Translations under genes and position numbers: made by a program
Assembly (NCBI RefSeq): GCF_037042905.1
Contig: NC_087251.1
Span: 32,242,001 to 32,306,000, forward strand
Origin: Lytechinus pictus
Taxonomy: Eukaryota
Reading direction: 5' to 3'
Length of the DNA stretch: 64,000 nt
The notes under the pieces: model-generated
Seen by the model: only the letters and a program-made list of their open reading frames with translations
Database searches by the model: none
Told to the model about the DNA's origin: nothing
Shown here: positions 4,301 through 55,072 of the stretch, in pieces
Numbering within the stretch: the first letter of the stretch is position 1
Layout: every line of letters begins with the position of its first letter

Positions 4301-6266
4301 TTGGTCTAGAAAATGTGCAAAGTATTGGCAGTGCAGAAATGAAAGTAATATTTAAAAAAAAAAGGAAGCTACATGCAAACCAACTGGATTACTAAACTCA
4401 TTTGTCCATGTACTGACACCATGAAAGCATTTAGGGTTATCATAGACTTGGTGGTCAATGATGTTCGAATATGCCTCGTGAGAATTGAACTCACCCAGTA
4501 CACAACAAAGAGTTTATAGCCAAATTGGTACTAGGCTAGACAGGAATAACCATTTCTAGGGATTTATTTAACAATTTCTGACATTTTACTAAGTGAGAGA
4601 AGCCAACGCAGTTCAGCAAAACAACCAAATACAGATACTAAAGCTTTTGGTCTAGTACTGTACTAGGCCTACTTGGGTATTTCACTTTCCTTCGGAATAG
4701 TTTTACATCACGTTGGCAACTATAAGGATAACACTGGCCTCGCCTGTATCATATATGAAAATAAAATAAAGCATGTTGATCTCTAGAGCACTGAGGTACA
4801 TGTATGTAAGGCATTGAAGTGATATAAAATCCAAAGAACACCATGGTATGTTTTTACAGGACATAAAGGGTAGAAATATTAAGAACGCTATGAAAAATTC
4901 TGTAGCGATAGGAATATAAGGGGAAACTAGCACTAGCCTTATTCTGGTGACAACTGACAAGACCACTTATCCAATGTAAAATTTTATGATATAAGTAACC
5001 TAACGTTATCCTCATTTAGTAAACATTGTGCTGTGTGGTGATTGAAATGAATAAATATTTATTTACTTTCTTTTTTTTTAATGTTCTTTATATCTAAACT
5101 GGATAAAGCACTTCACTATTTGGTACAGTCCTGGTTGTAAATTCACTTTATGCATTGGCCCCAAGCCCCCAAAATAAATTGAATTCTTGAAATTAATTTT
5201 GTTCTTATTATTTTTATTAAAAATAAGGTTAGTAGAATTGAATATCTGCATTCTGCACAGCACTTATCTCTCTTTCCATCAATTAATAGGCAATATTATA
5301 TGCTTCATCTTCAAAATCTAAATTCACAGGTTTGATTCAAATTGTCATAGTTGATTTTAATATTAAATGAACATAATTCCCAATTAAGGATACCAATCAT
5401 CTTTCCTATAACATGTTCGCATACATTTTTTGCCTACATTTTGTCATGTTTATTTTAACTCCCTGCAGCTGCATGTAGATCTAGATCTAACGTTAGATCT
5501 ATTTGGTATTATTAATAGATCTAGTAACATTTTTTGTTGTACTTTTTTGTTAATAGGGCCACATGGAAAACCACCAAGTTGATGATATGTGCCGCCCTGT
5601 GGCCTATTTAAATATCAGAAATCAAAAATAAATAAATAATTAATTAAAATTAATGATTAAGCCTTAAGCCTAGGGCCCACTCAGTCAAACTCAAACTAAA
5701 GACAGGCACAAAGATATGCTCAAATCATTCATGTTTTTGAGTGCTCTGGTAAAAAAAAATCAAATTCAGCTAAATTTACAACGGCAAAAAATCTACAATA
5801 AGAATTTAGGACATGAAACTAGTATTTATGGCACCACATGACATTCCGGTACATACTCACCTCTCGCTCTCCAAACGACCCGTGGGGGGCAGCAGAACCT
5901 CACATCCAGCCCGACAGTTCCGGGGAAAATTAGTGCAGCGTCCCGCTCGCTACCAGCAGCAGTGAGCATTTGCGGCTTGCGACGAACTCGGTTGCCATTT
6001 TTCAAATCAACGATATTTCACGATTTTTGTTATAAGATTGTACACATTTGATAAATTTAGGTGGCCGCTAATATATTGATATGGATGTGCAGTGTGAAAA
6101 TAAATTTCTAACGTCGATTTCCGATATAATTATAAAAAATGATTCAAAATTATACACGCATTTCCAATGGTAGCAGTCGACAAAAAGGCCCGGTTGGAAC
6201 TATTCGAGATCCTTCAAATTTGACCTTTGACCCCTGTTGTCGCAACCTTGTTTATATAGGGCCTTG
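1375..6266. mobile_element. 4.9-kb non-autonomous TIR transposon, P-superfamily-like
   Basis: Perfect 29-bp TIR caaggccctatataaacaaggttgcgaca (1375-1403 / 6238-6266); 8-bp TSD CAGTAAAT (1367-1374, 6267-6274). CANRG termini with 7-8 bp TSD are typical of P elements. No transposase ORF is visible. Confidence 0.85.
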
Positions 6267-6274
6267 CAGTAAAT

Positions 6275-6395
6275 GTACTAACCCCATCTACGGCGAGACA
6301 TTGTGTTACACAACAACAAAATTCAGAGTTCAGACAAACTTGTGAAAAAGCCACCGCCTTATTCCCTTTTAATGGAGAGGAACGTCAATCTATAG
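6275..6395 (+). other. Probable non-coding first exon / TSS region of the DNAJC4-like gene
   Basis: Strong donor AG|gtaagg at 6395 followed by CpG-rich unique sequence (6400-6900). Contains a short uORF, ATG 6372 to TAG 6395. The start coordinate is approximate. Confidence 0.5.
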
Positions 6396-7194
6396 GTAAG
6401 GTATAACAATCGCTGTGAATATACGCGATGGTTGATTATATGGTTGTATTTTGACATCTCAAAATCTTACCCACCATCAATTATAAATGTTAAATCTAAC
6501 TGATACAAATCAAGCTTGTCTCTATGTAGTCCGACATGTGTAAAATTGTGTACCGTCATGACCGTAGATTGTGCTTAAAATTAACCTTGTAATTGTGTTT
6601 GTAAGTGTAACCGAGACGTCGGATCGACAGCCGATATAACGATCTAATCACGGCTGACCGGCTGTTTCACACTGATCGCCAATCATACAGAGTGTGTCAG
6701 TGTGATCGGTGGCTATTTGAGTCTGACTTGGCAAGTCTTGCCACACGGCGCAATTTTTAAACAGTTTCGAAGTCAAAGCAATTTTAAAATGCGTGCTGAT
6801 ACTACCTAGATCGTGCAATTAATCTGAGTTCTCGACTCCGACTCCGTGACTTATATTCATTTTTATTTTCCTTTCCAACGATGTCGAGAAAATGCGCTAT
6901 TTAATAGGAACGGGAGATCACAACGAAATGTTTATAAAATGTTGATTTCTTGTGATGATTGGGGGTGATTAGTGTCTTGAGTTCTGGTGTGGGAGCGGAG
7001 TGACTGATCGGGGGGGGGGGGGTACTTTGAAAAATTGTGTAATTCAAAGCAATAAAAAAAAAAGAAATAGTGACAGACATCAAATCTCCGGTATTTTATA
7101 GATGGCAAATATAGCGATCTTCAACGCAAGTTATATATAAGCGTCGAAATTTGTAGCCATCTCCTTGTATTAGTCTATATTATACGACGTGTCA

Positions 7195-7730
7195 AATTGT
7201 AGCGAACTAGTTCGCTATTTCCAGATCTCCTCTATATATATATACACGACGGGAAATTGTAGCGAACTAGTTCGCTATTTTCCAGATCTCCTGTATATAC
7301 ATACGATGGGAAATTGTAGCGAACTAGTTCGCTATTTTCCAGATCTCCTCTTAACGACGGGAAATTGTAGCGAACTAGTTCGCTATTTTCCAGATCTCCT
7401 CTATATACATACGATGGGAAATTGTAGCGAACTAGTTCGCTATTTTCCAATTCTCCTCTATGTATACGATGGGAAATTGTAGCGAACTAGTTCGCTATTT
7501 TCCAGATCTCCTCTATATATATATACACGACGGGAAATTGTAGCGAACTAGTTCGCTATTTTCCAGATCTCCTGTATATACATACGATGGGAAATTGTAG
7601 CGAACTAGTTCGCTATTTTCCAGATCTCCTCTATATATATATACACGACGGGAAATTGTAGCGAACTAGTTCGCTATTTTCCAGATCTCCTCTTAACGAC
7701 GGGAAATTGTAGCGAACTAGTTCGCTATTT
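7195..7730 (+). repeat. Minisatellite left arm: 10 copies of a ~51-61 bp unit with the palindromic core TAGCGAACTAGTTCGCTA
   Basis: Unit aaattg-tagcgaactagttcgcta-ttttccagatctcct-(variable TA-rich)-cga(c/t)ggg read directly. Confidence 0.95.
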
Positions 7731-7771
7731 ATTTTGACCGCGCAAAATCCGACCACGCATTTTTAAGAGTG

Positions 7772-8949
7772 TAGTGGCGTACCGTGGGTCACAGCATTGG
7801 GGGGGGGGGCAGCAAAAATTTTGAGTCAATCATAGTGACTCAAAGACCACTTAGCGCGAAGCACGCTCAGATGTCAGGTATACTGACCTAATAGAGACAT
7901 TTTAAGGAAGCACTTGTAGTCATTTGTAATCATGAATTAAAAAAATACGCATCTCATCAATCAAATAATGCGAGCGCGAAGCGCGAGCTGAAAATATTTG
8001 ATATTCAGACCTAAAAAGGGACATTATAATCGACTTTGTAATCATGATACGTATCTGTCTCGCTAAACAATGCGAGCGCGAAGCGCGATCCGAAATGTGT
8101 GTATATATTGTCCCCAAACAGGGAGATCTTAAGGACTATATTATAGGAATAATCCCTTTATAAAATTATAGTATACATATCTCACCATAGATCTAATGCC
8201 AATGCCAATTAAGCGCTTGGTGATTTTGATAGAATTAAATTTAAACACTTATGAAGCACTTGTACTCATTGTAATCATGAACAACATACGCATCTCACTA
8301 ATCAAATATTGCTAGCGCGAAGGAAATTTAAACATGAAGAGGGGCATTATATAGCTTGTTGTAGGAATTCACTAAGACCATACGTAGTTAACTAACCAAA
8401 TGATGCGAGCGCAAAGCGCGAGCTGAAAATGTTTGATATTCAGATCAGAAAAAGGGACATTTTTATGACTGATTTTAGGAATTCACGGAGAACAGACATA
8501 TCACACCAATCCACTGATGCGAACGTAATCAAGGACAGGAAATATTTTATATTAAGACCTTAACATGGGGCAATCACTTTAAGTAGTCATGAAAAAGAAG
8601 CATATATGTAACTGCATAAACAATAATATATTTGGTGTATATTGACTTGAAACAGGAGTTTTTCGTACAACAGGTTTATATATAAACAGACAATGCGAGC
8701 ACCAGGAACAATGACATCATAGGCCCTGAGCAATAATGTTTCATAAAGTTAGGATAAAAGTGTTTTCTATGTAACATGATTATAATATAATATACCATTA
8801 TAATGAATAATAATTTCTTCTTTCCCACTACGTTCCTCTTCTTTTCTCCCTCTTTTTCTCCTTTTCCCCGTTTTTTTTTTTGTCAGCCGATTGGGGGTTG
8901 AGGGGAAGGGCACGTGCCCCCAATACCCCCCCCCGTAGTTACGCCACTG
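7772..8949. mobile_element. hAT-like MITE with GCGCGAAGCGCGAGC internal motifs
   Basis: Termini tagtggcgta...tacgccactg with subterminal G/C runs; no TSD match. Confidence 0.7.
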
Positions 8950-11920
8950 CCGTCGTATGTATATAGAGAGGAGATCTGGAAAATAGCGAACTAGTTCACT
9001 ATTCTGGTGTATATATCGAGGAGATCCGAAAAAATTGCGAACTAGTTCACTACAATTCCAATCGTATATATAGAGGAGATCTGGAAATAGCGAACTAGTT
9101 AGCTACAATTTCCCCTCGTCTATATATCGAGGAGATCCGAAAAAAATAGCGAACTAGTTCGCTACAATTCCAATCGTATTGTTAGAGGAGATCTGGAAAA
9201 TAGCAAACTAGTTCGCTACAATTCCCCCTCGTCTATATATCGGGGGGATCCGAAAAAATAGCGAACTAGTTCGCTACAATTCCCATCGTATATATAGGCC
9301 CTAGAGGAGATCTGGAAAATAGCGAACTAGTTCGCTACAATTCCAATCGTATATATCGAGGAGATCCGAAAAATAGCGAACTAGTTCGCTACAATTCCCA
9401 CTGGTGTATATATCGAGGAGATCTGGAAATAGCGAACTAGTTCGCTACAATTCCCATCGTATATATAGGCCCTAGAGGAGATCTGGAAAATAGCGAACTA
9501 GTTCGCTACAATTCCAATCGTATATATCGAGGAGATCCGAAAAATAGCGAACTAGTTCGCTACAATTCCCACTGGTGTATATATCGAGGAGATCTGGAAA
9601 TAGCGAACTAGTTCGCTACAATTTCCCCTCGTCTATATATCGAGGAGATCCAAAATAGCGAACTAGTTCGCTAAAATTCCAATCGTATATATCGAGGAGA
9701 TCCGAAAAATAGCGAACTAGTTCGCTACAATTCCCACTGGTGTATATATCGAGGAGATCTGGATATAGCGAACTAGTTCGCTACAATTTCCCCTCAGGCG
9801 CGGATCCAGGAGGGGGCCGAGCCGGCCCCGGCCCCCCCTATTTTTTGACAACCTGCAGAAAAAGTGTACTCTTTAACTTGATAGAAACTATGAAAAACAG
9901 AAAGAAAAGTAAGAAAGAGGTATCATACCCATGATGTGTAATTTACAACCTCGTAACGGCCGGCCAACCCCGAAAGGAAACAATAAAAGGGTGAAGGGGA
10001 GAATTAGAAAATAAACTTTATATAAAAAATTTCGCTCGCGCTTCGCGCTCGCATTGATTGTGTAATGAATCCCATTCAAGAGGATTAAATGGCACTTATA
10101 CATCCAGATCTGAAATCAATTTTGCACACAATATTTTAGCTCGCACATCAAGCTTTATTATTTTGTCTGTTTTACACAAATTGTTTATATCAAAGTTTTC
10201 AGCTCGCGCTGCGCGCTGGCATTGTTTGATTTGTGAGTTACCTATCCTCTGGAAATTCTTACCAAAATATGTCAAAATTCTCCTTTATCATGTCAGTTTA
10301 TAAAAGAAAATGAGCTCGTGCTTCGCGCTCGCATTTAATTATTTGAGAAACACAGCTTTTTCTGTATTTAAATAAAAACGCGCTTAGACTGTCCAGTTTT
10401 CAGGTCGGAATATCAACAATTTTGAGCTCGCACTTCGCACTCTCATTATTTAATTGGTGATCACTAAAAACCGTCCTAATTGAGTCCCTTTTCACGTTAC
10501 TATGATAAAATTTAGGCTCGCGCTTCGCGCTCGCGTTGTTTAGTTGGATACTTATCTTTTTTCATAATTATAATTATCTTCAGAATCTTCAGGTCTAAGG
10601 ACATGAAATATCAAAGAATTTGAGCTCGCGCTTCGCGCTCGCATTATATATTAAGACCACACGAGATACCTTATCTTGTTTATAATAATAAAATTAACAT
10701 ATACTTAAAACTTCAGTCTCTCGTTAGGACTACCCCCTAAAAAACCGAAAAAATCAGATTATAGCGGCCAATCGAGAAAAACGTTGATAAAAATATTTTT
10801 CGGCCCCCCCCTATTGGCGAAAGCTGGATCCGCCCCTGCCCCTCGTCTATAATCGAGGAGATCCGAAATAGCGAACTAGTTCGCTACAATTCCCACTGGT
10901 GTATATATCGAGGAGATCTGGAAATAGCGAACTAGTTCGCTACCATTTCCGCCCGTCGTGTATATACAGGAGATCTGGAAAATAGCGAACTAGTTCGCTA
11001 CAATTTCCGCCCGTCGTGTATATACAGGAGATCTGGAAAATAGCGAACTAGTTCGCTACAATTTCCCGTCGTATATATATATATAGAGCAGATTTGGAAA
11101 TAGCGAACTAGTTCGCTACAATTTCCCGTCGTTAAGAGGAGATCTGGAAAATAGCGAACTAGTTCGCTACAATTTCCCATCGTATGTATATACAGGAGAT
11201 CTGGAAAATAGCGAACTAGTTCGCTACAATTTCCCGTCGTGTATATATATAGAGCAGATCTGGAAATAGCGAACTAGTTCGCTACAATTTCCCGTCGTTA
11301 AGAGGAGATCTGGAAAATAGCGAACTAGTTCGCTACAATTTCCCATCGTATGTATATACAGGAGATCTGGAAAATAGCGAACTAGTTCGCTACAATTTCC
11401 CGTCGTGTATATATATATATAGAGGAGATCTGGAAATAGCGAACTAGTTCGCTACAATTTCCCGTCGTATGTATATAGAGGAGATCTGGAAAATAGCGAA
11501 CTAGTTCGCTACAATTTCCCATCGTATACATAGAGGAGAATTGGAAAATAGCGAACTAGTTCGCTACAATTTCCCATCGTATACATAGAGGAGAATTGGA
11601 AAATAGCGAACTAGTTCGCTACAATTTCCCATCGTATGTATATAGAGGAGATCTGGAAAATAGCGAACTAGTTCGCTACAATTTCCCATCGTATGTATAT
11701 ACAGGAGATCTGGAAAATAGCGAACTAGTTCGCTACAATTTCCCGTCGTGTATATATATATAGAGGAGATCTGGAAAATAGCGAACTAGTTCGCTACAAT
11801 TTCCCATCGTATGTATATACAGGAGATCTGGAAAATAGCGAACTAGTTCGCTACAATTTCCCGTCGTGTATATATATATAGAGGAGATCTGGAAATAGCG
11901 AACTAGTTCGCTACAATTTG
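8950..11920 (-). repeat. Minisatellite right arm: about 34 copies in inverted orientation, split by the MITE at 9795-10838
   Basis: About 15 cores in 8950-9794 and about 19 in 10839-11920, counted by eye. Confidence 0.95.
9795..10838. mobile_element. hAT-like MITE inserted into a minisatellite unit, 5-bp TSD
   Basis: TIR caggcgcggatcc / ggatccgcccctg; TSD CCCCT (9790-9794, 10839-10843). Neighbouring uninterrupted units read tttcccctcgtc and give the empty site. Confidence 0.85.
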
Positions 11921-12029
11921 ACATGTCGTATAATATACACTAATACAAGGAGATGGCTACAAATTTCGACGCTTATATATAAGCGTTTAAGATCGCTATA
12001 TTTGCCATCTTATAATTTCCCTCAAATCT

Positions 12030-12225
12030 CGTTTGCATATCACTGAGTCATTAATGATTAAGATTCACTATTTTGTGTTTTTGTGAAAAATAAGTGAAAC
12101 TTTAAAATGTGATGATAACTTTCTTATTTCACATCTGATTTTGATGAAGTTTTAGCATTATGCTTGCTTATGTGAGTTTTCTCTATCAATGCAAATCAAC
12201 AATTTTCTGGGGTGGACTTGACCTC
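12030..12225. mobile_element. Right half of a Kolobok-like MITE (family of 54657-55072)
   Basis: Shares ataactttcttattt...gattttgatgaa...caaatcaac...ggggtggact with the 54657 element. Confidence 0.6.
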
Positions 12226-12714
12226 TAGACTTTGAAGAATAATCCTTTTCAGCAGCTCCAAAGCTACCCCGGGTTAAAAACAATCTGTGTATCAGTGCGA
12301 GGTGCCACAGTGAAGTGCACTGAAATAAACAGCAGACTCATCTGGCACTCTTTGTTCTAAATGACTCTATGTTACTGTTGAAGAATGTTGCTTGTTGGGG
12401 CATCTTGTCTGTGTTTGATCCGAAGTCAAATGAAACTTAGAACATGTAGGCGTAAACTCCTGTTCTTTTTTATTAAGATCCATCATCCACCACAAAATAG
12501 AGAAGACTTTAACAGACCTGCCAACCAGTACATTTTAGCCGTATTTAGTACGTGTTTTTTTTAAAACTAATTGACATCAGATTGATAAAGGACATTACTA
12601 AAGTGTGAGTCACCTCGGGTAGATTCCCCTTTTAATAACCTTGAGTTTAATTCTGTTTTGTTTTGTTTGTTTTTTTTCCTAAAGGAATCTTTCGAGTGTT
12701 ATGACAGAAGCAAG

Positions 12715-12812
12715 ATGCCATTTACCAATGCTTTCACGCTATGCACCAGATGTCAGCACAAACTTATACTTCAAAGTCTGCACCATGTTAGAGGAATAAC
12801 AACAGGAATAAG
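12715..12812 (+). CDS. DNAJC4: DNAJC4-like coding exon 1 (exon starts at 12685): MPFTNAFTLCTRCQHKLILQSLHHVRGITTGI
   Basis: Polypyrimidine tract + aag acceptor ending 12684, ATG at 12715, donor AG|gtttgt at 12812 (phase 2) in frame with the J-domain exon. No acidic residues, as in a mitochondrial presequence. Confidence 0.75.
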
Positions 12813-15800
12813 GTTTGTCATGGCTTGAAGCTTCATCTTTATATTAATATTAATCTTTGCTTGTTAAGACAGTGTACATTATTGTTTAAAGGGTTTTTTA
12901 AAGGTTATACTGTAAAGAAGAATTTTCATGTTAAAAGTATTAAAAGTAATTATATATTTCTCTACTAGGATAGTGCTTCTTAGGGACACTAGTCTCCCAC
13001 TAATAGGAATAAGTAAATCTGTACTATATGGTCATGTTGTCAGTCACATTGTTGCAATTTTTTTTCCATTACCTGTTATTTTCAGTATGTGGATTCCTAA
13101 ATTTGTCATGTTTGATGATCATTGATGTCAAGTCTATCCACGTTCTTACTTGTACTAATACATTTTTGTCAGTGATAAATTAATCAAGTTCTTTTCAAGT
13201 AATTATATCAGTGACAGATTTTTGTGTGAATGACAGTTGTAACATTTGTTCTAAAGTCTCAAAGGATTATTTATTTCTCTGTTCATTTACAGGCTTAGGA
13301 GCCAGACACAATCAAACCATTATGAGACTTTAGGTTTGCCAAAAGATGCAACCAGTTTAGAAATTAAAGCAGCATACTTTGAATTGTCTAAAATGGTAAG
13401 TGTGTATGCCTGTCATTGGAAGTTTCAGGTACATGTATACTCTTCCACCACCTTTTCTCTCTTTCTCTCCCTATTTTTTGTTCTACTTGTTCTCTCTTGC
13501 TCAACAGTTAATCTGTGCGACAAATATTTGAAAACAGTTGATATAAATATGTATTAACAGACTCTCCAAAATTAATAGCTTATCTGCATAATAAACAGTT
13601 TATTTACTAATTAAATTTATAGAAAATTCTCTAAATAGTAACAGTTAATGTGCAATCCATTACTTAAACCTACAATAATCATATGACGTCATGGAGCACA
13701 TATAAATCAAACATAAAACACGATTCTAATCCTCACTTCTATATGAATATGAACTGCTCATTAGCTGATTATTTTAGGGTGAAGGTATGATAGTTGAGTG
13801 CTTTCTTAGGGGATTCAACTGAAGTGTTTGTTCTTATTATGTTTTTTTGGAAGTCTCAGTAAATGCACACAACATAGAGCAAATGAAGTTAGATATCTAC
13901 AGTCACACACACCCACTGCTGCTGACATTTATATCTCTTAAGCCTGTCTCACACTATGCGATCTGGTGCGACGCAATTTTTCAAGAAATCGCATTTTGCA
14001 TTAAATATGAACGTTCCAAAAAGTAAAATTATTTTATTCAAAGTTTGTCATATTGTTAGGGAAACTTAAATCATATTTTTACTTTGTGGCAAGCCCTATG
14101 CAGAGCTGCCAAATAGTACGATTTTGTCGTATTCCGTACGATTTTTCACTTAAAATACGACACTAGGATTTTTACAAATAAAATACGATTTTTTGAAAAT
14201 ATAGCTATGGCAAGATCGACATTACAGAAATCCACCTCGGGCAATCATTATTGAAAAATGTTAAGTTTTGGTGGCCCGAATCGGGCAACCAATAATTTTC
14301 ACAGTAGCGCAATTTTTCTCCCGATTTTGCACGCATTTATCAACTTTTTACAGTTCAAATTGCAACCAATTTGTCATGCGCCCTTTTTGTTGATCTACAC
14401 ACAAATACACACACACATGACAGTACATAGGCTTACCGCTATAACATACAGTAGCTATTATCCAGCCGGGCGGCTGGCTGGCGTGCGTGAGCTTTGCATG
14501 AAACCACTGCAGCTACATGTAGCTATCTGTGCGCTATCAGCCTATTCAGACTCGGGGAGCTATGATACGAAATGTTGCTGCTAAGAAATCTTCCACAGAA
14601 CTTTGAAAATCTATGTCAAAGTCACATTTTACAACAATGAATTGCCCTTCTACAGTCCATATTACTCAAATCTGGTGTAAACTGACTATTTGCAAGCATT
14701 AAAAACAGGAATTATGACCTCTCTTTTGACTCAAAAAGACCGATTTCCAAATGTATTAATACACATAAAAACACATAGGTGAGTACATCACAGTCCCATA
14801 TGTGCATTTGTATGTATGTTGATACTTGGTTTCTTTCGAAGCTGTGTCTTTTCTAGCAAAAAATAAGCAGGCCGTTTTTTTCTTTTTTGTTTATAAATGA
14901 CTTCTTAAACCACTCTTCAGAAAGAAAATACTTTGGGAAGGCATTTCATTGATATGAAATGTGAATTTTTCAAATATTTTGGCAAACAAAGTAAAGGACT
15001 TCTCACACTTTTTTTCCAGATATAACTTTTGCCGTTTTCTTATTTTTTTTTTTTTTTTGACAGTGGTTAAACCATATAACCCTTCCCATTGAATATGCCT
15101 GATTAAAGAATATGTTTCTACTGAAAAAATAATACAAGCGAAATTAAGGTTATAAAAATTGAAATGCGCCATCCCCAAAAGGTGAGTGAAAATTATTTGC
15201 TCAATTGGCTTAAACTGTTGCTACGTACAGCTGTTAAAAATATTTGTAATGGCTTCTCATTTTTACCCCTTCCCCATTTTTTATTAATTTTGTTTTATTA
15301 ATTTTTTTTTTCATTTTCTTTTGTTTCTTTTTTTCTTTATTTTTTTTTCTTTTTTACTTCTTTTTCCTGTTCTGTTTTTCTTCATTTTCTTTCTTTTGTT
15401 TTATTTCACTTATTTTTAATTATTTTTGTTTTCTTTTTGTAATATTCTTTTAATTTTTTTTTGCTCGTTTCCCACTTTTATGCATTGTTCTAATTTTGCA
15501 GCATATTTTTCTGTGATTTTCTCCGCTATAATATGCTGCAAAAGAGAAAACAAAAATAAATGGGATTTGGAGCCTGTATAATCTAGGTTTTAGGATTCAA
15601 AGAGGAAGAAAGGAAAAATCATTGTTTTGTACATTTATATGAGTTAGCTTTGCACTATTTTTACTATTATGAGTGTGTGTCTATACAGAGATTTTTTTTA
15701 AAGTCCACACATCCTGGGAACAATACATTTCACTCTCTTTCAATCATTTCATATTTACAATGATAGAACAATTTATATTTTACCACAAATCAATTAGCAA

Positions 15801-18800
15801 AGTAAAATAACAGCAAACAAGATTTACATACAAGATGTACAAAATGAAAGTGACTTAGTGGTAGTGGCTGCAGAATTGATATTTCAGAAGTTTGTTGTAT
15901 TCATTTTTAATGTTTTTCTTTATATTTTTGGGGCCACCAAACTTTAATATCGGGCCATCAAAACAAATAATTTGAAGGTTTTGGTGGCCCGAACGGGCCA
16001 GCACTAAAAAAAGTTAATGTAGAACCTTGCTTGTCGGATGTAAAAATTACGGTGAGCACAACAAAATAATGAGATGTATAGTAGGAAAGTACATAACGGG
16101 TACGAATAGGATTTTTTGTCTAAAAATAGGATTTTTGGGGTGAAATATAGGATTTTTTGTCAAGTGTGGTTGGCAGCTCTGCCTATGGTCGGAGCAAAGT
16201 CCAAATCGTCTTCAAGTCACAGCCGATGATGACGTTATTACGATTTGGAGTTTAATTTGTTTTATTCCTCCAGGGAAGCTCGAATTAGACTGAATTTCGA
16301 TTTCAGTATAGTCCTACCACTATTCTGAACTTTGATCCGTGATATCTTATTAGTTGGAATATCCATATCAAATGTTTTCACAATTAATTTGAAATTTGGA
16401 TCGCAACGAATCGCATATTGTGAGGCGGCTTTAGATTGATGCCATCTTGAATTCTTTTCCTAATTGTTACCCATCCAGCTCCATCCCGATGCCAATCCCC
16501 AGAACCCTGATCAACACGATCGCTTTGTGCAGCTGAGTGAGGCGTATGGAATCCTAAGTAAAACAACCTCTAGGAGAGAGTATGATCTGAGTCTTACCAG
16601 GCCACATGTAAAGGAGATCAGAGTACACAATATGGATGTCTCACCGGACAACCCATTCGGTGGACACAGTGAAGCAGATTGGTAAGATAGTCAGTTTCTT
16701 TCAGGGTCCCAACTAACTTTGCTTTCTCACAAAGACTGAAACCCTGTCACCTGTTTGTATGATCCGCTATACATGCCAGCAAGCTAGATTAACGATACAT
16801 AGCATGCATCACAAGTTTTGGTTGAACCCCATTTCCTGTTAAGTTTTGATACAATATTTCCACAGTAAATTGTGAATAACAAAATTGACACTAATTGTCA
16901 CCATTCATAAATAAGTATTTGTGCGTATAAGTATGCACAAACGTCAATATTATTGACAATATTGGCAATATTGTCAATAATATCAATTGTAACAACCACT
17001 TTTTATATAGTGAGTCGCCCAATTTCAGACTTTAATTTAAGGGAATTTTTCACTTTGCAAAATGTGAGCCGCATGATGTTAATTGGTAAGAAAACATTTT
17101 TTCCCCTGTTCTTTAAAGTGTGCTGCTATTGTAGGCCTATTGATATTCATTTTGATTATAGTAATGTAAAAATGAACCCCAGATTAAATATTGAATTCAA
17201 AGCACCATCATGTTCTTCAAAAAGTGTGAGAATAATGGTGTGTAAGTATTATAGGAATTGTCCGATATTTATTTTCCCTGGGCATACAAAACAGTGTTAT
17301 GTTTTATGAATTGCACTATTCGGTCATAGTTTTTTTTAATGCATACATAACAAAATGTTATGTTGGCTGCGGCCTTGTTGTCGTCGTTGCTGGTCAAACT
17401 TGTCTCATGTGGGAAGAGGAAGTCTATGGGAACGGTTGATATTGGACGGTTGGATATCTATTTGAAACCCATCCCTGACAAGATTGATTGATGAAGGTAT
17501 GGTTTTGTACTTGAAAATAAAATAGAATTTCATTTTTTTTCTTTGATCAGGTTTCCAAGAACTCACATCTTCAGAGCAGGTGGTGATGAGAAGGTCAATG
17601 AGAACTACTATGGAATCAAAGGACTCAGGAGGGTTAGAAACTCATATGTAGTGTATGGATGTATAGCATTCATCTTTACTGGTGCTGTCTTCCATTTCTT
17701 TGTTTTCAAGTAAGTTCTGTTTGGTGTAAGGTCATCCGTGACCCAACCATTGCTCCTATGACAAGTGATTTTGTATAAAAGGAAACCAAACATTAAGGAT
17801 AGAATCAATCTGAGAACGATAAGATGAGATCATCAGCTTAAAAGAAGGTTTATCATAATCAGGAAATTTGTCCTGCAACGCTTTTGATCATTATTTTAAT
17901 TTTAATTTGCATGTAGACAACATGTTGCAAAAATTAGGTCAATTAGTTGGTTTTCTGGGAAGATTGCAGCGATCCTTAGGTGAATCGACTCTGAAATTAA
18001 TATGTAGTTGATTGTTGTTTACGATGCAGCCTTTAGGAAATACACAGACCGCCTAAAAAAACAACTACCAAACAGGGCAGGCCGTATTATACTCCAGATT
18101 AAACCCGAATCTCAAATATTTATTTTGGAAATGCATAATACACTTAATTGGCAATTGTTGGACAAAAGAAGAAATGACCACTCCCTTGTTCTCATGTATA
18201 AAATCATGAACAATCTCTCCCCATAATATTTAAGAAATTGATTTGAGTTAGTAACACATACCGGGTAGGCTACATATCCCTCCTGTTTTGGAACCAAATT
18301 TGAATAACCCAAACCAAGAACAAATTACATCGAAAGATCCTTCAAGTAGAAAAGCACCATGGCTTATAATTCATTAAATCATCCCCTAGTATTAATGTTT
18401 TCCAATCTAAGATTGTTGATCTGTAGAAAATGGACTCCGGAACCCCCCTCCTTCCATTCCCTGTTACTAGGTTTACACCCCTTCACTTTTGTTTTTGTTT
18501 TTCTGTTTGTTTTGTTTAATCCACCATATTTTATGCTTTTATTATAGAAATAAATCCTATTACTACTACTACTACTATTGGGATCCTTGAATTAACAAAT
18601 GTGCTTCAAAATGACTGATTTTGTGGACATCTCTATATTTGTTTTGCACACAAATTATCAGCCTTTCCTCATAATCTTCCAAATGCCATATTTCCACTGG
18701 AAAACAACATATGTCATAGGGAAGTATAATTCACACCATGTATATCAATGTCAGGAGGAGATATCAGAAATATGTAAAATAAAGGGGAAAATAATGTGTA

Positions 18801-21895: not shown

Positions 21896-23717
21896 TTTTT
21901 TGTTTGTTTGTTTTATTTTTATTTCTGCGTTCACAATACATTATCATAAATATTTACATTGTTTGTAATATACAAAATAATTCATAATGCATACAATATA
22001 AACATAATACATAATTTGAAGGAAAAAAAATTGTGTGGGCATATACTTCACATTTTGATAATAAAAAAGGAAACATTAACAAAATTTAATGAACGCAGGA
22101 GACCGCCATCGTGAGCGGTTAAGCTTGTAATTGATGGCGGCCTCATAAAAAGGGTTCGTGACTATGATTGGTATAATTACTGAACAAGTGGGTGCAATGC
22201 AGGTGCAGGTGCGGGTGCAGAAGATAGCTGTATAATTTATATTTTTTATTTAATTTATAGTGGTAAATGAGGATTAATTTGAAGGTTGGGATGAATAAGA
22301 TCTTATGATATTTCTTTTAACAGTTGATTTTAAAGAGTATAAAGTGGAACAAGATTTAATATTTTCTGCAAGATTATTCCAAATGTCTGGACCATGATAA
22401 CTATTGAACTTAAACATATCATCAAAAGACGAAGGGAGTAGGTTATTAATATACTTAAACATAATGATAGCTACTTGAAGAGTATACAAGTCGGCAAATT
22501 TTAGTGTTTTCTGTTTGAAAAATAATGGATCAGTGTGAGCCAAGTAATGAGATCCTGTACAAATGCGAATAACTCTCTTTTGTAATTTGAAAATAGAAGT
22601 CAGCTTTGTTGAGCCACAATTAGCCCAAACAACGTTACAATAAGTAATATACGGGAGTACTTAGGAATTGTACAATAGGAATAAAGTTTTAAGAGGCAAA
22701 ATAAATTTTAACTTAGAAATAATTCCAATGCTTCTCGAAATACGCATTGTAATATGGTGCAGATGCTCATTCCAAGATAAAGCTTCATCTATGATAACCC
22801 CTAAAAATTTAGAGTGAGTTTTCCGTTCTAATGACTTGCCGTCAATCTGTAGGTGAAATTGAGTGTTAGAAATATGAGAGTGATGTTTAAAATATATGTA
22901 GTGAGTTTTGTGTGTGTTCAAAGATAATTTGTTAGCTTTGAACCACTGTGATACTTTGTTTATTTCATGATTTAAAATATTGTATAACGAAGTAGGATTT
23001 GTATGAGAAAAAAAAATATTTGTGTCGTCAGCGAATAATACAAAAGATAAAATGGATGATGTATTAATAATGTCATTGATATATAGTAAAAATAATAGTG
23101 GGCCTAATATGGAGCCTTGAGGGACACCACAACGAACTAAAAGTGAGTCAGAGTCATAACCATTAAATGCGACGTATTGTTTTCGATTTCTTAAGTAATC
23201 TGTAAACCAAAGGAGGGATTGACCTCGTACGCCATAATAATTAAGTTTTGAGAGTAGAATGTCGTGATTAAGTGTATCAAATGCCTTACTAAGGTCACAA
23301 AATATGCCAATGACATGTTCTTTATTAGCAATGGCGTTTGTAATTTTATCATAGATTTGGATTAAAGCCAAGTTTGTTGAGTAATTTTTCCTAAAGCCAT
23401 ATTGATTAGAATTTAGCAGATTGTGTTTGCTGATGAATTTATAAAGTCTGTTATATACTATTTTTTCTAAGATTTTTGATATAGTTGGGAGAAGAGAAAT
23501 GGGGCGATAATTATTAATTTCATGAGGATTGTCTTTTTTGAAAATTGGATTGACTTTGGCGATTTTGAATAAGTCAGGAAAAACTCCTTGTGATAATGAT
23601 TCATTAAAAATGTTACTAAGAGGATTAGCAAGTGGGTAAATTATTTCTTTTAAAAGAGACATACTAATTCTATCATGTCCATGCGATTTTGAACTGTTAA
23701 GAGACCGTGTAATATTG
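21896..23717 (-). mobile_element. 5'-truncated L2-group (Crack-like) LINE: reverse transcriptase plus 3' UTR
   Basis: RT motifs NYRPISLL, QYGFR, DLSKAFD, GVPQGSILGP, FADD, KFLG. The frame continues through one TAA (22661-22663) to 22274. The 3' UTR ends in aataaa plus A/CAAA-rich tail; possible flanking duplication ATATTG. Confidence 0.92.
22274..23715 (-). pseudogene. LINE ORF2 RT/C-terminal remnant with one premature stop and an apparent internal deletion
   Basis: ORFs 22661-23737 and 22274-22543 are in one frame, linked by VLPYITYCNVVWANCGSTKL...QKRVIRI. Confidence 0.85.
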
Positions 23718-24214
23718 ATATAAAACGACCCCCTCAAATTTTACATTATTTTTAAGTGTTATTTGAAAGTATAGATCATGTTTAGTTCATTAATATTTAT
23801 CTATTGAGCCTAATATAAATGTTCTTTCAAAAGTGGAACATTTCCCATTTGACCTTCCCCTTTTAGCCACTTGGTTCATACTTATAACTTGCACATGTAA
23901 GAATACGGTATCTTATTTCTTCCTGTTACAATGCAAAATTCCTAGCTAATTGCTGTGCAATGTAAGTGTTATGAAAGCTGATATTTTTCATCTCTTTTTC
24001 CAGTATTTTTGTTATTTAAGGCTTTTTAAAAATATATCAGTAGAAGATTATATTGCCATGTTTTTTTTATATGTCGAGAATTAGATGTGGGGGTGGGGGA
24101 CTTCGGAGGACCAATAAGAGCCAAAGTGATCAGATATCATCCCCTTTTTTTTCTACAGAATACTTGCTTTACATTATAGGAATGTACACAAAGCTGTATT
24201 GTATTTCTAGAGGG

Positions 24215-26729: not shown

Positions 26730-26733
26730 TTAA

Positions 26734-27318
26734 AGGAGAATAAAACCTTTGGAACAAGATAGCTTGTGTGAAAACAGAAAAATCAAAGAAACAGATCAAC
26801 GAAAGTTTGAGAAAAATCGGACAAATAATGCGAAAGTTATGAGCATTTGAATATTGCGATCACGAATGCTATGGAGATCCTCAAATTGGCAATGTGACAA
26901 AGATGTATGATGTCACTTGTGAACAACTCTCCCCATTACTGTAGTATATATTTCACTTAAATTGCCTCTTTTATCACATCTATCAGTAGATCATGTGTTC
27001 TTTCTATAGGAGGGCATGTAATACAGATTTTTAAAGAATACATCATGGATAAAGAGTTTGTATCACCACAAGAAAAAGCAGAAAGAGACATTTTGAGGGT
27101 ATTTTATAGTCCATCAAAGGGAAATTTGTTCACAGGTGACATCACACATCCTTGTCGCATTGCCAATGGGAGGATCTCCATAGCATTAGTTATTGCAATA
27201 TTCAAATGCTCATAACTTTCTCATTATTTGTCCGATTTTTCTCAAACTTTCTTTGTTCTTACTCTTTCATTTTTCTGTTTCGAAACAAGCCTACTTATTT
27301 CAAAGGTTTCATTCCACT
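26734..27318. mobile_element. Kolobok-like palindromic MITE, copy A (diverged subfamily)
   Basis: TTAA on both sides, AGG-type terminus, ~200-bp inverted arms, similar to 28352-28940. Confidence 0.85.
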
Positions 27319-27599
27319 TTAAGTTATTCTACTTTTTAAAAATATTCATTTATTTATTTTGTTTGATTTATTTTATACTGCATGGTTGGCCTGTTCAGTT
27401 TTGAAAAACTGCTTTAATTAAAATGTTGATAAATGTAAATCAATTTTTCAAAAAATTAAGTGCCCCCATCTCCCACAGAAATCCTAGTTGCTAAAGCTCT
27501 TGTGTTTTATTATGTTCTTTTACCAATCTAAATTGAGTTTTGAAATAAACTAAATAATAAAATGTGAACCGAAAGAGAGAGAGAAAGACAAAAAGAGAT

Positions 27600-27948: not shown

Positions 27949-28351
27949 TAATTAGAAATAATTCGCAGCGAATGACAGAGCAATAGTCAGACCGATTGGC
28001 GATTGCCGATACCATAGAAAGCTAAAGAGAGCGGCGCGCCAGATTTAAGCGAAGGAAGAGTGAATATTTGTGTCTTGCATTTTCTTGTAAAAAGTTGTTT
28101 TCTTTCTTGTAATACGAGGGCAAATTAGAGGTAAGTGTACCAGACTTATAAATGTAAATAGATTGTGGTATTTTTGTGAAATTTGAAACCACTGTTCACT
28201 TTTTACTGCGGTGTTTTTCAGTCACTGCGCTGAAATTGATTCTCCATTTTTTTAGACATGCCTTTTCTACCTCCATTCACTTTGTACACAACTCATGAAT
28301 TGCGGGCGTGTGTGTGTGTATTTGAGTTTTTTTTTGTATCACTGACTTTAA

Positions 28352-28940
28352 AGGAGAATGAAACTCTTGGAGCAAGTTAGCTTTTGTGAAAGCAGAAAAA
28401 TCAAAGAATAAGATCAACAAAACTTTGAGTAAAATAGGACTAGCAATAAAAGAGTTATGAGCATTTGAATGTCGAGATCACTAATGCTATGGAGATCCTC
28501 CCATTGGCAATGCGACCAAGATCTGTGATGTCACACACGTACAACTCTCCCATTCGGACACTGAAAATATACCCCAAAACATCTCTTTTTGCTCATTCTA
28601 ATCATATGACAAACGTCAATGATTCATCAATGATATAATGTTGTGAAACCTCTGTACTTGTCATCTCATAAAGAAAACACCTAACCTTGTGATAGACTCT
28701 ATAAAAGTGAGAATATACGTGAAATAAGTACTAAAGTAATGAGGGAGTTGTACGTGTGTGATATCACAGATCTTGGTCGCATTGCCGATGGGAGGATCTA
28801 CATGGCACTAGTGATCTCAATATTCAAATGCTCATAACTTTCTTATTATTCATTCAATCTTCCTCAAACTTTCAACAATATGTTTCTTTGATTTTTCTCT
28901 TTGATATGGATTCAGCTGGTTTCAAGGGTTTCATTCTCCT
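28352..28940. mobile_element. Kolobok-like palindromic MITE, copy B
   Basis: TTAA|aggagaatgaaac ... gtttcattctcct|TTAA. Confidence 0.9.
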
Positions 28941-28981
28941 TTAAGACGTTAGTTTAGTGGCCATTCCGTGCTTTTTAACTG

Positions 28982-29174: not shown

Positions 29175-30610
29175 CTGGTCACCAAATCGAATTTGTACCT
29201 CCTTTCACCACAATATAATGTAAACAGTGTTGACTAGACAGCTGGCAGCCATCTGTTTCAAGGAGTTTTTTAACATTTTTATTATTTTTTAAAATTTCTC
29301 CTCGTACACAGACGGCTCGCTATCGTGCAGCCACCAGACGGGGCTCATCGATTTTTGTCTCTTTTCATAAAGATATTTAAAAAAAATTGTACCAAAATAA
29401 ATATTATTATTCCGTTTTGGCCTGAATTAATGTACCAAAACGGAAAAATAAAAGAGGAAAAAACAGTGACTTACTTCCGCTGTCGCACAACTTCACTTCC
29501 CTGTTTTATTCGAACTTAATAGTACATAAACATATGACCATTGAGTAATTTACCATTGAGTCCCTGTACAGATCGAGCTAGAACTTGGGTCTCTGTATTT
29601 GGTGAGTGGAGCCAACGGAGTTCAGCGGAACAACCAACAGAACAGAGACCGAAGCTTTTGGTCTAGGTGCTAACATAACTTTTTTGAAGCACTTGTACTT
29701 GCCTGGTTGGGCAAGTGAATTCCTAAAAAGTTGGAAAATACTTGCCCGAAAATATATTTCACTTGCTCGGAAAAACTCTTTCAAAACGTTTTACCGCTCC
29801 GAAAGAAAGAAGTGCAGGTTTATTATATACCATTGCTTTTTTCCTCTCTTTTAAACATGAACTGGCCTGTGTACCTTGCATTTGCCTGCCGTGACTGAAA
29901 TTAGTGTCAATATGCCATTTGATTAATTTCCTCTATCATATATTTTCATGTACTTTTGTATATGTCCATGACACAAAATAAAAAAGGGAATCACTGAAAA
30001 TAACTAAAGAAGAAAGAAAGAAATTACAAAGATAAAGAAAAGAAGAAAAAAGGAAGGGAGGGTGAAAGAAAGAATGAAGGAGAGAGAAAAAGGGAAAGAA
30101 AAGAGAAGAAAGAATGAAAATGCATTAAAAATGAAGAAAAGAAAATGATGGTTAAAAGAAAAAAAATGAAAAGAAAGAGAGAATAAATAAGGATGAAAGA
30201 AAGGATAATGAAAGTAAAGAAAAAATGTTTCCTTTATTCTTTGAAATAAAGAAAGAAAGAAGGAGAGAAAGAAAAAGAAAAAAAAAGTAAGAAAAAATGA
30301 GGAGGAAAGAAAAAGGTTTCCTTCATTCTTTGAAAGAAAGAAATAATTAAGAAAAACAGGAAGGGAGAAAGGACGGAAAGGCCAAACAATGAAAAAAGTC
30401 CACGACAAAGTCTCTTCACTCACTTAACAACTTCGAAATATAATAATGAAAAATCGGCGCACATCGTCGGTGCACATATCGTCTGTTGCTACTCATCATG
30501 CATGAATTGATTTGGATACATACATTATTTTATAGTTCGGACCTATTATTTCACTTGTTTGTAAGTACATGCAATCACTTTTTTTTATTATCATATTTCG
30601 AAGTTGTTAA

Positions 30611-33011
30611 AGGAGAATGAAACTCTTGGAGCAAGTTAGCTTTTGTGAAAGCAGAAAAATCAAAGAATGAGATCAACAAAAGTTTGAGTAAAATAGGACT
30701 AGCAATAGAAGAGTTATGAGCATTTGAATGTCGAGATCACTAATGCTATGGAGATCCTCCCATTGGCAATGCGACCAAGATCTATGATGTCACAGATGAA
30801 CAACTCTCCCCTTTTGGACACTGAAAATATACCCCAAAACATCTCTTTTTGCTCATTCTAATCATATGACAAACGATTCATCAATGATATAATGATGTGA
30901 AACCTCTGTACTTGTCCTCTCATAAAGAGAACACCTCACCTTGTGATAGACTCTATAAAAGTGAGAATATAAGTGAAATAAGTACTTAAATAATGAGGGA
31001 GTTGTGCGTGTGTGACATCACAGATCTTGGTCGCATTGCCAATGGGAGGATCTACATGGCATTAGTGATCTCAATATTCAAATGCTCATAACTTTCTTAT
31101 TATTCATTCAATCTTCCTCAAACTTTCAACAATGTGTTTCTTTGATTTTTCTCTTTGATATGGCAAGGCTCCACATTAACTGTTTTTGGTGGTGGCCCGT
31201 TCGGGCCACCAAAACCTTCAAATAATTTTTTTTGGTGGCCCGATATTGAAGTTTGGTGGCCCGGAAAATATAAAGAAAAACATTAAACATTCTGAAATAT
31301 TAATTCTGCAGCCACTACCACTAAGTTACTTTCACTTTGTACATCTTGTGTGTAAACCTTGTTTGCTGTTTTTTACTTTGCTAATTGATTTGTGGTAAAA
31401 TAGAAATTGTTCTATCATTGTAAATATGTAATGATTGAAAGAGAATAAATGAATTGTGTGGACTTTTTTTTAATCTCCCTATAGACACGGACTCAAAATG
31501 GTAAAGTAAATAAACAGTGCATAACAAACTCAGATAGATGTACAAAACAATGATTTTTCCTTTCTTCCTCTTTGAATCCTAAAACCTAGATTATGCAGGC
31601 CCCAAATCCAGTTTATTTTTTTTCTCTTTTGCAGCATATTATAGCAGGAGAAAATCACAGAAATATATGCTGCAAAATTAGAACAATGCATAAAAGGGGG
31701 AAACAAACCAAAATAATTTTCAAAAAGTATATTACAAAAAGAAAACAAAAATAATAAAAGAAATAAGTGAAATAAAACAAAAGAAAGAAAATTAAGAAAA
31801 AACAAAGAACAGGAAAAAAATTAAAAGAAAATAGATTTAGACTAAAGAAACAAAAGTAAATGAAAGAAAAATGAATAAAACAAAATTAATATAAAAATGG
31901 GAAAAGGGGGAAAATTAAGAAGCCATTACAAATATTTTTTAAAGTCTATTCTGACTGGAATATAATTAAAAGCCAAGCAAATAATTTTCACTTATCTTTT
32001 GGGAATGGCGCATTTCTATTTTTATATCCTTTAGTTTGTATTATTTTTTTTAGTAGAAACATATTCTTTAATCAGGCATATTCAATGGGAAGGGGTATAA
32101 AAAAAAAAAAAAACCGGCAAAAGTTATATAGATCTGGAAAAAAAAGTGTGAAAAAAATCATTCCCTATATTTGCCAAAAGGTTGGAAAAATTCACATTTC
32201 ATATCAATAAAATGCCTTCCCAAAGTATAAACTTTCTCAACAGTGGTTTAAGAAGTCATTTATAAACAAGAAAGAAAGAAACTGTTTATTTTTTGGCTAG
32301 AAAAGACACAGCTCCGAAAGAAACAAAGTATCAACATACATACAAATGCACACATGGGACTGTGATGTACTCACCTATGGGTTTTTATGTGTATTAATTC
32401 ATTTAGAAATCGGTCTTTTTTAGTCAAAAGAGAGGTCATAATTCCTCTTTTTAATGCTTGCAAATAATCAGGGTACACCAGATTTTTAGTAATATGGACT
32501 GTAGAAGGGCATTTCATTGGTGTAAAATGTGGCTTTGACTTAAATTTTCAGAGTTCTGTGGAAGATTTCTTAGCAGCAACATTTCATATCGCAGCTCCCT
32601 GAGTCTGAATACCGGTAGGCTGCCAGCGCACAGCTAGCTGCGCATGGCTTCATGCAAAGCTAGCTCATTCCAGCCTGCCGGCGCGGCCGGCTGGATAACA
32701 GCTACTGTATGCTGTAGCGGTAGTACTGTCATGACTATGCAAAATTTGTGTGTGTGTATTTGTGTGTAGATCAACAAAAAAGGCGCATGACAACTGGCTT
32801 GCAATTTGAGTTGTAGAAAGTTGATAAATGCGTGCAAAATCGGGAGAAAAATTGTGCTACTTTAAAAACTATTGGTTGCCCGATTCGGACCACCAAGACT
32901 TAACATTTTTTCAATAATGGTTGCCCGAGGTGAATTTCTGATGGCCCCGGGCCACCGCTAATGTCGAGCCTTGGATATGGATTCAGCTGGTTTCAAGGGT
33001 TTCATTCTCCT
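30611..33011. mobile_element. Kolobok-like MITE, copy C, interrupted by a P-type element
   Basis: TTAA TSD (30607-30610, 33012-33015); nearly identical to copy B once 31164-32980 is removed. Confidence 0.9.
31164..32973. mobile_element. 1.8-kb non-autonomous P-type element, copy 2
   Basis: TIR caaggctccacatta / taatgtcgagccttg; 7-bp TSD GATATGG, present once at the equivalent empty site in copy B. Confidence 0.9.
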
Positions 33012-46911: not shown

Positions 46912-48272
46912 GTCGGGTGTTTCATAAAGCTATATGCAAAGTTACGCCCAACTTTGTGCATGACTAGAGCATGTTCTTAGCTGCTAAGTCGGCTACACAG
47001 GGATATACAATGTGGCGCAAGAAAGCGTCACCAGTCTTGCGAAAAGTCAGTATTGACTTAAGCCCCTTTCACAATTGACGTACGACCATTTGCGACCTTT
47101 TGGTCGTGCGACAGGCTGCAACAGGCATCAATCGCTAGTCATCTCATAAGATCGCACAGAGGCTTTCACAGTTGCAACAGCTGTCGTACAACAAAACAAC
47201 CAGTAAACCCCGATGCACGAGTAAGTCGCATATACTCTTATTGTGCTCGTGCGATCACATGCGAGTGTTGCACGAGGGATTGCGAGTGGAACGGTCGCAT
47301 ACATGCGAATGAAACGGTAGTGCAATGTTGTAAGCCGTTGCGATCGGTCTTGCAACAGTCTTATTGCCCATATTATTATCGCAACCAGTCGCAAGACAGG
47401 TCTCTGTACATGTAGGTCGCTTGCACATGTGCAAGTGTTGCACGACCTCCAGTCAAGTAAATGCGACTACTTAGTTGTGCCACCTCTCGCACCAAGTCGT
47501 ACAACGTTGAAAGACACTCGCACGATGATCGCCCGACCGATGGTACGACCCCGGGTACGGTCTGATGCGAGTGAATCGATCGTATTTGATCGCGTTCGGA
47601 TTTTGAACATGTTCAAAGTTCAGATGTGACCAGTCACGACCACCTCGAGTTCGTGCGACCGTCTACAACGACTGCGAGTGCTCGCAAGACACCAAGAGAT
47701 CGATCGTGCAACAACAAGAAAAAACTGTTGCAGGCAGTCGTAAACTGGTCGGACGTCAATTGTGAAAGGGGCTGAACGGTCGCATACATGCGAATGCAAC
47801 GGTAGTGGAATGTAGTAAGCCGTAATTTCGATCGGTCTTGCAACAGTCTCATATTATCGCACCCAGTCGCAAGACTGGTCTCTGTAGGTCTCCAGCACAT
47901 GTGCAAGTGTTGTACGACCTCCAGTCGACTAAATGCGACTATACTTAGTTGTGCCACCTCTCGCACCAAGTCGTACAACGTTGAACAACACTCACACGAT
48001 GATCGCCCGACCGATGGTACGACCTGTTGCGAGTGAATCAATCGTATTTGATCGCGTTTGGATTTTGAACATGTTCAAAGTTCAGATGCGACCAGTCACG
48101 ATCACCTCCGACCACCTCGAGTTTGTGCGATCGTCTACAACGACTGCGAGTGCTCGCAAGACACCATGGGATCGATCGTGCAACAACAAGAAAAAACTGT
48201 TGCAGGTGGTCGTAAACAGGTCGTACGTCAATTGTGAAAGGGGCTTTACGAACAGCTTTCTGAAACACCCAC
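46912..48272. mobile_element. Tourist-like MITE (family of 28982-29174) interrupted by a Harbinger-type element
   Basis: gggtgtttcataaagct / agctttctgaaacaccc. Confidence 0.7.
47061..48245. mobile_element. PIF/Harbinger-type non-autonomous element with a duplicated right portion
   Basis: TIR agcccctttcacaattgacgtacgacc / ggtcgtacgtcaattgtgaaaggggct; TTA TSD; 47289-47773 is repeated as 47774-48245. Confidence 0.88.
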
Positions 48273-54656: not shown

Positions 54657-55072
54657 AGGTCAAGTCCACCCAGAAAAATGTTGATTTGAATAAATAGTGA
54701 AAAATCAAACTAGCATAACGCTGAAAATTTCACCAAAATCGGATATAAAATAGGAAAGTTATGGCAGTTTAAAGTTTTGCTTATTTTTCACAAAACGTTG
54801 ATATGCACAACTCGGTGTAATGCAAATGAGTCAGTCGATGATGTCCATCACTCACTATTTCTTTTGTGTCTTATTGTTTGAATTATACAATATTTCATTT
54901 TTTTACAGATTTGACAATAAGGACCAACTTGACTCAACCCTATAGTATTAAACAACTTTAAAATGTCATAACTTTCTTATTTTACATCCGATTTTGATGA
55001 AATTTTCAGTGTTATGCTAGTTGGATTTTTCTTTTTTATTCAAATCAACTTTCTGTTGGGGTGGACTGTCCT
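54657..55072. mobile_element. Kolobok-like palindromic MITE
   Basis: TTAA|aggtcaagtccacc ... ggtggactgtcct|TTAA. Confidence 0.85.

Follow-up and report, generated by a model that had tools for sequence, protein, structure and literature searches.

A foldback element with palindromic repeat arms in the first intron of a presumed DNAJC4 gene of Lytechinus pictus, most likely a non-autonomous Mutator-like transposon

In the passages of the literature on which we draw, Mutator-like elements (MULEs) are defined by target-site duplications (TSDs) of 8-11 bp and long terminal inverted repeats (TIRs) (PMC6446971), G or C being usual in their first three bases (PMC13359780). In Muta1, a higher number of subterminal repeats goes with stronger binding and more excision (PMC5499845), and the arm repeats of Galileo have been reported to be secondary binding sites (PMC3573991). 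Here we describe a gene-less element of 4933 bp, with mirror-image arms of short repeats, lying at positions 7089-12021 of a 64,000-nucleotide stretch of the Lytechinus pictus genome (contig NC_087251.1, positions 32,242,001 to 32,306,000, forward strand; hereinafter the window, from whose first letter all positions are counted). We suggest that it is a non-autonomous cut-and-paste foldback transposon, most likely belonging to the Mutator superfamily, a reading to which we assign a probability of roughly 0.7.

The initial annotation had placed the limits of the element at 7100 and 12010; the positions at which other copies start and a 9-bp repeat move the true ends 11 bp further out on each side. 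The direct repeat TCAAATCTC is found at 7080-7088 and at 12022-12030, exactly 11 bp outside either lead (the unique outer portion of each arm), while a repeat of at least 9 bp turned up in 30 out of 20,000 position pairs of the window when the identical scan was applied to the random background (0.15%). Moreover, the flank at about 7030-7088 belongs to a high-copy repeat, the reads of whose other copies continue into letters matching 12031 onward, and the left and right flanks align consecutively to an uninterrupted copy of this host repeat near 54.7 kb. Since copies start at 7089/7090, the repeat is symmetric and the host repeat rejoins across the insertion, we place the element at 7089-12021 with a 9-bp TSD. 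Three shorter readings of the TSD at 7100/12010, that is TAT (3 bp), TTATA (5 bp) and ATTT (4 bp), were dropped once the starts at 7089 and the 9-bp repeat rejoining the host repeat had been recognised. The outermost 11-mers are unlike, matching at 5 of 11 positions, and their first three bases, both read inward, are CGG at the left end and GGG at the right one. The unique inverted ends of about 100 bp described initially are indeed present, with 3 substitutions and a single indel of 3 bp between them. The features of the two ends are the following:

7028-7079, plus strand: left part of the older host repeat, the target of the insertion; it corresponds, on the minus strand, to the uninterrupted copy near 54640-54910, and shows very high read depth and loose ends
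7080-7088, plus strand: left TSD, TCAAATCTC
7089-7099, plus strand: left outer end, CGGTATTTTAT, which does not truly mirror the right one; the alignment of other copies starts at 7089/7090
7100-7199, plus strand: left unique lead of the TIR, in which AGATGGC recurs internally in inverted orientation (7100/7156) and 3 bp are inserted (row 7128)
11914-12010, minus strand: right unique lead of the TIR
12011-12021, minus strand: right outer end, GGGAAATTATA read inward
12022-12030, plus strand: right TSD, TCAAATCTC
12031-12227, plus strand: right part of the older host repeat, 80% alike to 54795-54654; the loose ends of other copies continue into it

As for other copies, four of 16 public sequencing runs, all with a word share with the flank of at most 0.13, were aligned to 5800-7259. 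Three of the 16 piece rows listed begin at the left end, either at 7089 (X1 record 7 and X6 record 13) or at 7090 (X6 record 14), and X1 record 7 carries 2998 upstream letters that do not fit the window's flank. The idea of a foldback-type transposon is thus borne out by a 9-bp duplication at symmetric offsets, by the splitting of an older repeat and by other copies that have other flanks and start at the same base. These same data bear on the possibility that the structure is a minisatellite locus duplicated in inverted orientation in a single DNA-repair event and that the 9-bp repeat arose by chance. The rearranged centre, the very unequal arms and the lack of a duplication around one of the two nested insertions (insert A, see below) would suit such an event; the symmetric 9-bp repeat with its 0.15% background, the cleanly split host repeat and the same-base starts with other flanks in two organisms argue against it, and we consider it very unlikely.

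The long inverted arms of tandem repeats, unequal in number, together with the TSD and the dispersed copies with other flanks, place the element in the foldback class. In agreement with a MULE affiliation, it has a 9-bp TSD (one copy) and long TIRs starting with CGG and GGG. The short, unlike motifs outside the inverted repeat (11 bp per side), whose left-type start is common to other copies, are of the Phantom/Tm1 kind, and the combination of a 9-bp TSD with subterminal tandem repeats is that of Rehavkus. The Phantom/Tm1 group is also characterised by a transposase that combines FLYWCH and MULE.

Several points weigh against this assignment. The 9-bp TSD is known from one copy, and no transposase was found in the element itself. 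The TSD by itself cannot separate the element from AcademH, whose TSDs of 9-10 bp (PMC10045372) encompass the length found here, and the Tm1 paper, in the part consulted, holds that a foldback shape is no proof of kinship (PMC3169594). The palindrome of Muta1 is the terminal motif, of 10 bp, and does not form the core of the repeat unit, and the repeats of Muta1 are 12 bp long; the reservations expressed below about the leads, the helical phasing and the conservation of the core point in the same direction. It is possible, though doubtful, that we are dealing with a true foldback transposon mobilised by the transposase of another superfamily, be it AcademH or some group that is new or little known. 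The TSDs of AcademH would fit, as would the finding that the foldback build arose in several superfamilies (PMC3169594). The G/C-rich, unlike ends and the tandem-repeat arms of our element, on the other hand, fit published MULE foldbacks. As for the ends, the left CG of the element (one copy) agrees with the pattern YR..YR of Academ and the right CC does not.

The arms on which the Mutator reading also relies consist of the following blocks:

7200-7730, plus strand: left array, 10 exact palindromes and 9 spacers, ending in the middle of a unit
8950-9794, minus strand: inner right array, 15 palindromes with inner-type spacers; it ends in the 5 bases that form the left duplication of the second nested insertion (insert B)
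10844-11913, minus strand: outer right array, 19 exact palindromes

Each unit contains TAGCGAACTAGTTCGCTA, a perfect 18-bp palindrome. The initial count of about 44 copies holds (40 exact, 44 when up to 2 mismatches are allowed, all within 7200-11913), and no further copy exists elsewhere in the whole 64-kb window at up to 4 mismatches; apart from TA runs and a few isolated, unrelated instances, the window has no perfect palindrome of at least 16 bp outside the element. There are two inverted arrays, as proposed, the left one with 10 palindromes (7200-7727) and the right one, oppositely oriented, with 34; the latter, previously read as one run, is in fact made up of 15 and 19 palindromes separated by a 1044-bp insert. 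The tandem units of about 55 bp are equally evident, the spacing of the palindromes being 51-62 bp (mean 56.6), with a TRF period of 54-57 and trimeric higher-order periods of 166-171. The invariant core comprises the palindrome plus 3-5 bases per side, its columns being conserved in 42-44 of the 44 units, while the spacers average 75-85% identity; the spacing of the palindromes shows no helical phasing (R=0.15). The perfect mirroring of the two outermost spacers was confirmed (types 1,2 in both arms), after which the order diverges (3 vs 6): from outside in, the spacers run 1,2,3,4,5,6,2,6,3 on the left and 1,2,6,2,4,5,5,7,8,2,3,9,2,3,10-13, continuing, on the right, the longest exact match between the arms being 193 bp. 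This arrangement also speaks to the suspicion that the inversion or the order of the units is an assembly artefact: no run shared half or more of the flank's words, yet the arms differ in unit order and lead positions, insert B sits within an intact 5-bp duplication and the flanks rejoin as one repeat, so that we find such an artefact hardly credible.

In the right lead, 11965-11982 forms a second perfect 18-bp palindrome, ACGCTTATATATAAGCGT, the left-lead version of which is broken by the 3-bp insertion. The observed/expected ratio of CpG is 1.5-1.75 in the arrays (7089-7730, 8950-9794 and 10844-12021) vs 0.68 window-wide, and CpG decay is not evident. A CRISPR-like array was ruled out, the spacers being related, recurring variants (23 types). 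Neither the palindrome nor the lead has any match in viral contigs, a core 22-mer and a lead 21-mer have none in prokaryote genomes, and the 2 matches of the palindrome in metagenome contigs come with neither the unit nor the lead of the element; these blanks are uninformative because such collections contain little animal DNA. One metagenome contig, unrelated to the element, has the palindrome extended to 22 bp (L001, 1175-1225), with a degenerate second copy about 41 bp away, near an apparent small transposon end that we take to be pogo-like.

The two arms are layered. Each of the 9 left spacers finds an exact twin in the set of 17 outer right spacers, and not one (0/9) does so in the 15 inner right ones, the mean identity of the left spacers being 0.85 with the former and 0.76 with the latter; likewise, the 5 mismatches in the palindromes all fall in the inner 15 copies, with 0 in the other 29. 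The words GGATCTCC and CGAGGG occur in 7 and 3, respectively, of the 15 inner spacers and in none of the 26 outer ones, and both were seen by eye in other copies, in four of the spacers listed (2 from run X1 and 2 from X6). From these sequences, we infer that the inner units may retain an older, shared type and that the outer units would have been recently homogenised between the arms. The leads differ at 4 places per 100 bp vs identical array twins (Fisher p=0.0006), a test biased by the choice of the best match, in that any left spacer may match any of 17 right ones. The 3-bp insertion in the left lead looks private to the left arm because every aligned record spanning row 7128 lacks it. As an alternative to homogenisation, the leads may be fixed as left- and right-type across the family. 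A gradient of homogenisation from outside to inside bears on the upkeep of foldback arms and on the seeding of satellites.

The interior of the element is occupied for 2222 bp by two nested insertions:

7731-7771, no strand: 41 bp of foreign DNA between the left arm and insert A, possibly a remnant of the centre or of another insertion
7772-8949, no strand: insert A, 1178 bp, with 10-bp inverted ends YAGTGGCGTA
9795-10838, no strand: insert B, 1044 bp, with 15-bp inverted ends (14/15 matching)

Insert B lies within one repeat unit and is bordered by a perfect 5-bp duplication, CCCCT (9790-9794 and 10839-10843); a target duplication was looked for around insert A and none was found. The two inserts and the stretch 52454-52877 are 68-84% alike in patches (76-84% matches for A vs B and vs 52454-52877). 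Inserts A and B look like non-autonomous elements of an abundant family, for which we take the hAT group with 5-bp TSDs as a candidate identity. Further pieces resembling them occur at 52454-52877 and at 49522, along with one more CAGTGGCGTA end. Nothing else in the window matches the 41-bp foreign stretch significantly. A deletion beside insert A probably eliminated both the original centre and the inner part of the left arm, because both arms stop in the middle of a unit next to this insert, with 41 foreign bases on the left side. Concerning coding capacity, the longest stop-free frame of the element has 111 amino acids and no Pfam family exceeded the cut-off in the 6 frames tested; at the gathering threshold, Rfam gave 0 matches in 6000-13500.

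On the basis of this organization, a possible history can be outlined, in which a transposase encoded elsewhere would cut at both of the unlike 11-bp ends, and extra binding sites raising end pairing and excision, as in Muta1, would be supplied by the tandem units. The conserved core of about 26 bp would be the likeliest bound site, perhaps by a dimer, the palindrome being the putative transposase site. Such binding might be additive rather than strictly cooperative, because helical phasing is absent, which speaks against strict same-face cooperativity; the conservation of the core, for its part, could come from homogenisation without selection. Units would have been gained, lost and reshuffled through unequal exchange, and the outer parts of the arms recently made alike via inter-arm copying; then the two smaller elements would have been inserted, and a deletion beside insert A would have taken the inner left arm and the centre. 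From the point of view of the host, the element would be a passenger removed by splicing, with an RNA that is able to pair and may undergo adenosine-to-inosine (A-to-I) editing. The invariant 18-bp word offers a target for binding tests once an autonomous copy is found. A bolder and in our opinion improbable extension is that the element might be a deleted copy of a larger palindrome-armed element, whose associated protein family would be an unrecognised transposase or end-binding protein reading the palindrome as a dimer. If true, a protein and its defined binding site would become available for a foldback group that belongs to none of the known superfamilies, and whose arms would be kept alike starting from their outer parts.

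Concerning the spread of the family, organism A has an exon 1 identical to that of the window, while organism B is about 10% different in the intron and contains diverged repeat units; hence the family is probably older than the split between organism B and the window's lineage. The read depth in organism B, about 470 over the lead vs about 50 over the unique intron, is not a copy number in itself, but suggests a family of low to moderate copy number. Paired ends were seen for the window's copy only. The attribute "young" given initially can be maintained in part: the intact duplications and the identical outer arrays agree with it, whereas the two insertions, the deletion and the diverged relatives in a second organism do not. 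Literature searches found, among the results listed, no publication on this family, Repbase and Dfam, in which it may be catalogued, lying outside their scope.

The possibility that the pre-mRNA forms long double-stranded RNA, raised previously, is upheld by the prediction of 598 inter-arm pairs; for the duplex of the left arm with the outer 642 nt of the right one, the predicted energy is -1046 kcal/mol vs about -250 for either of them alone. The same does not apply to the extrusion of the arms as cruciforms, which require little or no spacer: since the arms are 1219 bp apart at their closest, a whole-arm cruciform is unlikely and only small 18-bp hairpins are possible. As to editing, the loose-end consensus of X14 (4 reads, second unit) shows three T>C (7257, 7268, 7271) and one A>G relative to the window, two of the differing positions being invariant in 44/44 window units. 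At position 7245 the first mate lies on the plus strand in 4 of 5 variant reads, which in the usual library means minus-strand RNA, where T>C reads as A>G. The 5' neighbours of the T>C sites are A, U and A, of the kind preferred by ADARs (PMC9989829, in the part consulted), which adds little because 8 of 11 candidate sites have such neighbours. On the other side, the reads carry other differences and probably derive from another copy, X15 has no reads there, and other copies have genomic variants of the palindrome. The proposed check on A-to-I editing thus yields, from four X14 reads without matched DNA, a hint only that the RNA of the element is edited.

The element lies within the first intron of its host gene, as initially suggested, since X1 contig 6 joins 6395 directly to 12685; this contig matches 6300-6396 with 0 differences and then continues with exon-2 letters, and may stem from a carrier or from a non-carrier of the insertion. 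The intron is 6289 bp long and the element takes up 78% of it (4933/6289), leaving 693 bp on the donor side and 663 bp on the acceptor side. The exons concerned are:

6300-6395, plus strand: exon 1, non-coding, whose 3' end carries an in-frame TAG; the donor GT follows at 6396
12685-12812, plus strand: exon 2, with the probable start codon

Exon 1 is assigned to the 5' untranslated region (UTR) because of the in-frame stop at its end. The gene, which by resemblance we take to be DNAJC4, has a confirmed J domain over two later exons (about 13293-13395 and 16478-16681); a search of an atlas with its C-terminal exon gave matches only below 0.9. A short upstream open reading frame (MERNVNL, stop) occupies 6372-6395 in exon 1, and an out-of-frame ATG precedes the probable start near 12700 in exon 2. 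Reads and contigs at 5800-6266 suggest minus-strand RNA just upstream of exon 1 and a possible head-to-head promoter; this region is of high depth in X6, and the minus-strand reads may derive from other repeat copies. Given that the element accounts for 78% of an intron in the 5' UTR and that its RNA can pair over about 600 bp, carriers vs non-carriers would represent a natural test of its effects on splicing, editing and expression.

The window contains other repeated sequences: a reverse transcriptase frame on the minus strand at 22274-23740 (RVT_1, E=8e-37), probably a LINE-type fragment; two inverted 1.8-kb copies, 84% alike and 15 kb apart (14225-16030 and 31163-32940); a hairpin-shaped repeat of about 600 bp in three copies (26730-27322, 28348-28944 and 30607-31163); and a GC-rich 1.2-kb element (47060-48246) whose inverted ends measure 38 bp (92%) and which contains an internal tandem duplication of 472 bp.

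The corrected ends and the TSD point to a superfamily, and their value is mostly that of an instructive annotation; a transposon specialist would be unsurprised unless the partner protein proves new in kind. The closest plan among the described systems is that of Tm1, followed by Muta1, Rehavkus and Tetris, and the comparison refers to the parts of the sources consulted. Tm1, a Mutator/Foldback, Phantom-like family of root-knot nematodes, shares with our element the 9-bp TSD, the unlike short outer motifs, the unequal tandem-repeat arms, the mostly non-coding copies and the nested insertions (PMC3169594); if only the left ends are compared, its motif A1 (CGGTTAA) and our element both start with CGGT, which may be due to chance. 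Tm1 proper differs in having a unit of about 14 bp (motif C), 7-bp outer motifs (A1/A2) and elements of 1-2.6 kb (PMC3169594), vs a 51-62-bp unit with a perfect 18-bp palindrome, 11-bp outer ends and a 100-bp lead here. Muta1 of Aedes aegypti is similar in its 8-9-bp TSD, its "type 2 foldback" TIR with subterminal tandem repeats, its non-autonomous copies with unequal repeat numbers and its GGG ends, like the right end of the element, and different in its symmetric 145-bp TIR and in the 3-4-bp linkers of its 12-bp repeats (PMC5225508, PMC5499845). Rehavkus has a 9-bp TSD and long inverted ends with variable tandem repeats (up to 50) evolving in concert, but it is listed from arthropods and annelids and defined by a PHD-finger transposase (PMC6446971; bioRxiv 10.1101/2024.12.02.626372). 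In Tetris of Drosophila virilis an outer unique domain is likewise followed by tandem repeats, with an 8-10-bp TSD and no autonomous copy, and the assignment to Mutator was made by TSD alone; its unit (about 220 bp) and its outer domain (up to 866 bp) are, however, much longer (PMC4079207). Galileo, of the P superfamily, has long TIRs with tandem repeats expanding and contracting independently in each arm, but a 7-bp TSD, vs 9 bp here, and repeats of about 210 bp (PMC3573991). The TU elements of the sea urchin Strongylocentrotus purpuratus, compared here by description only, are foldbacks with modular long inverted repeats as in our element, from which they differ in that their outer end is made of 15-bp repeats and their TSD has 8 bp.

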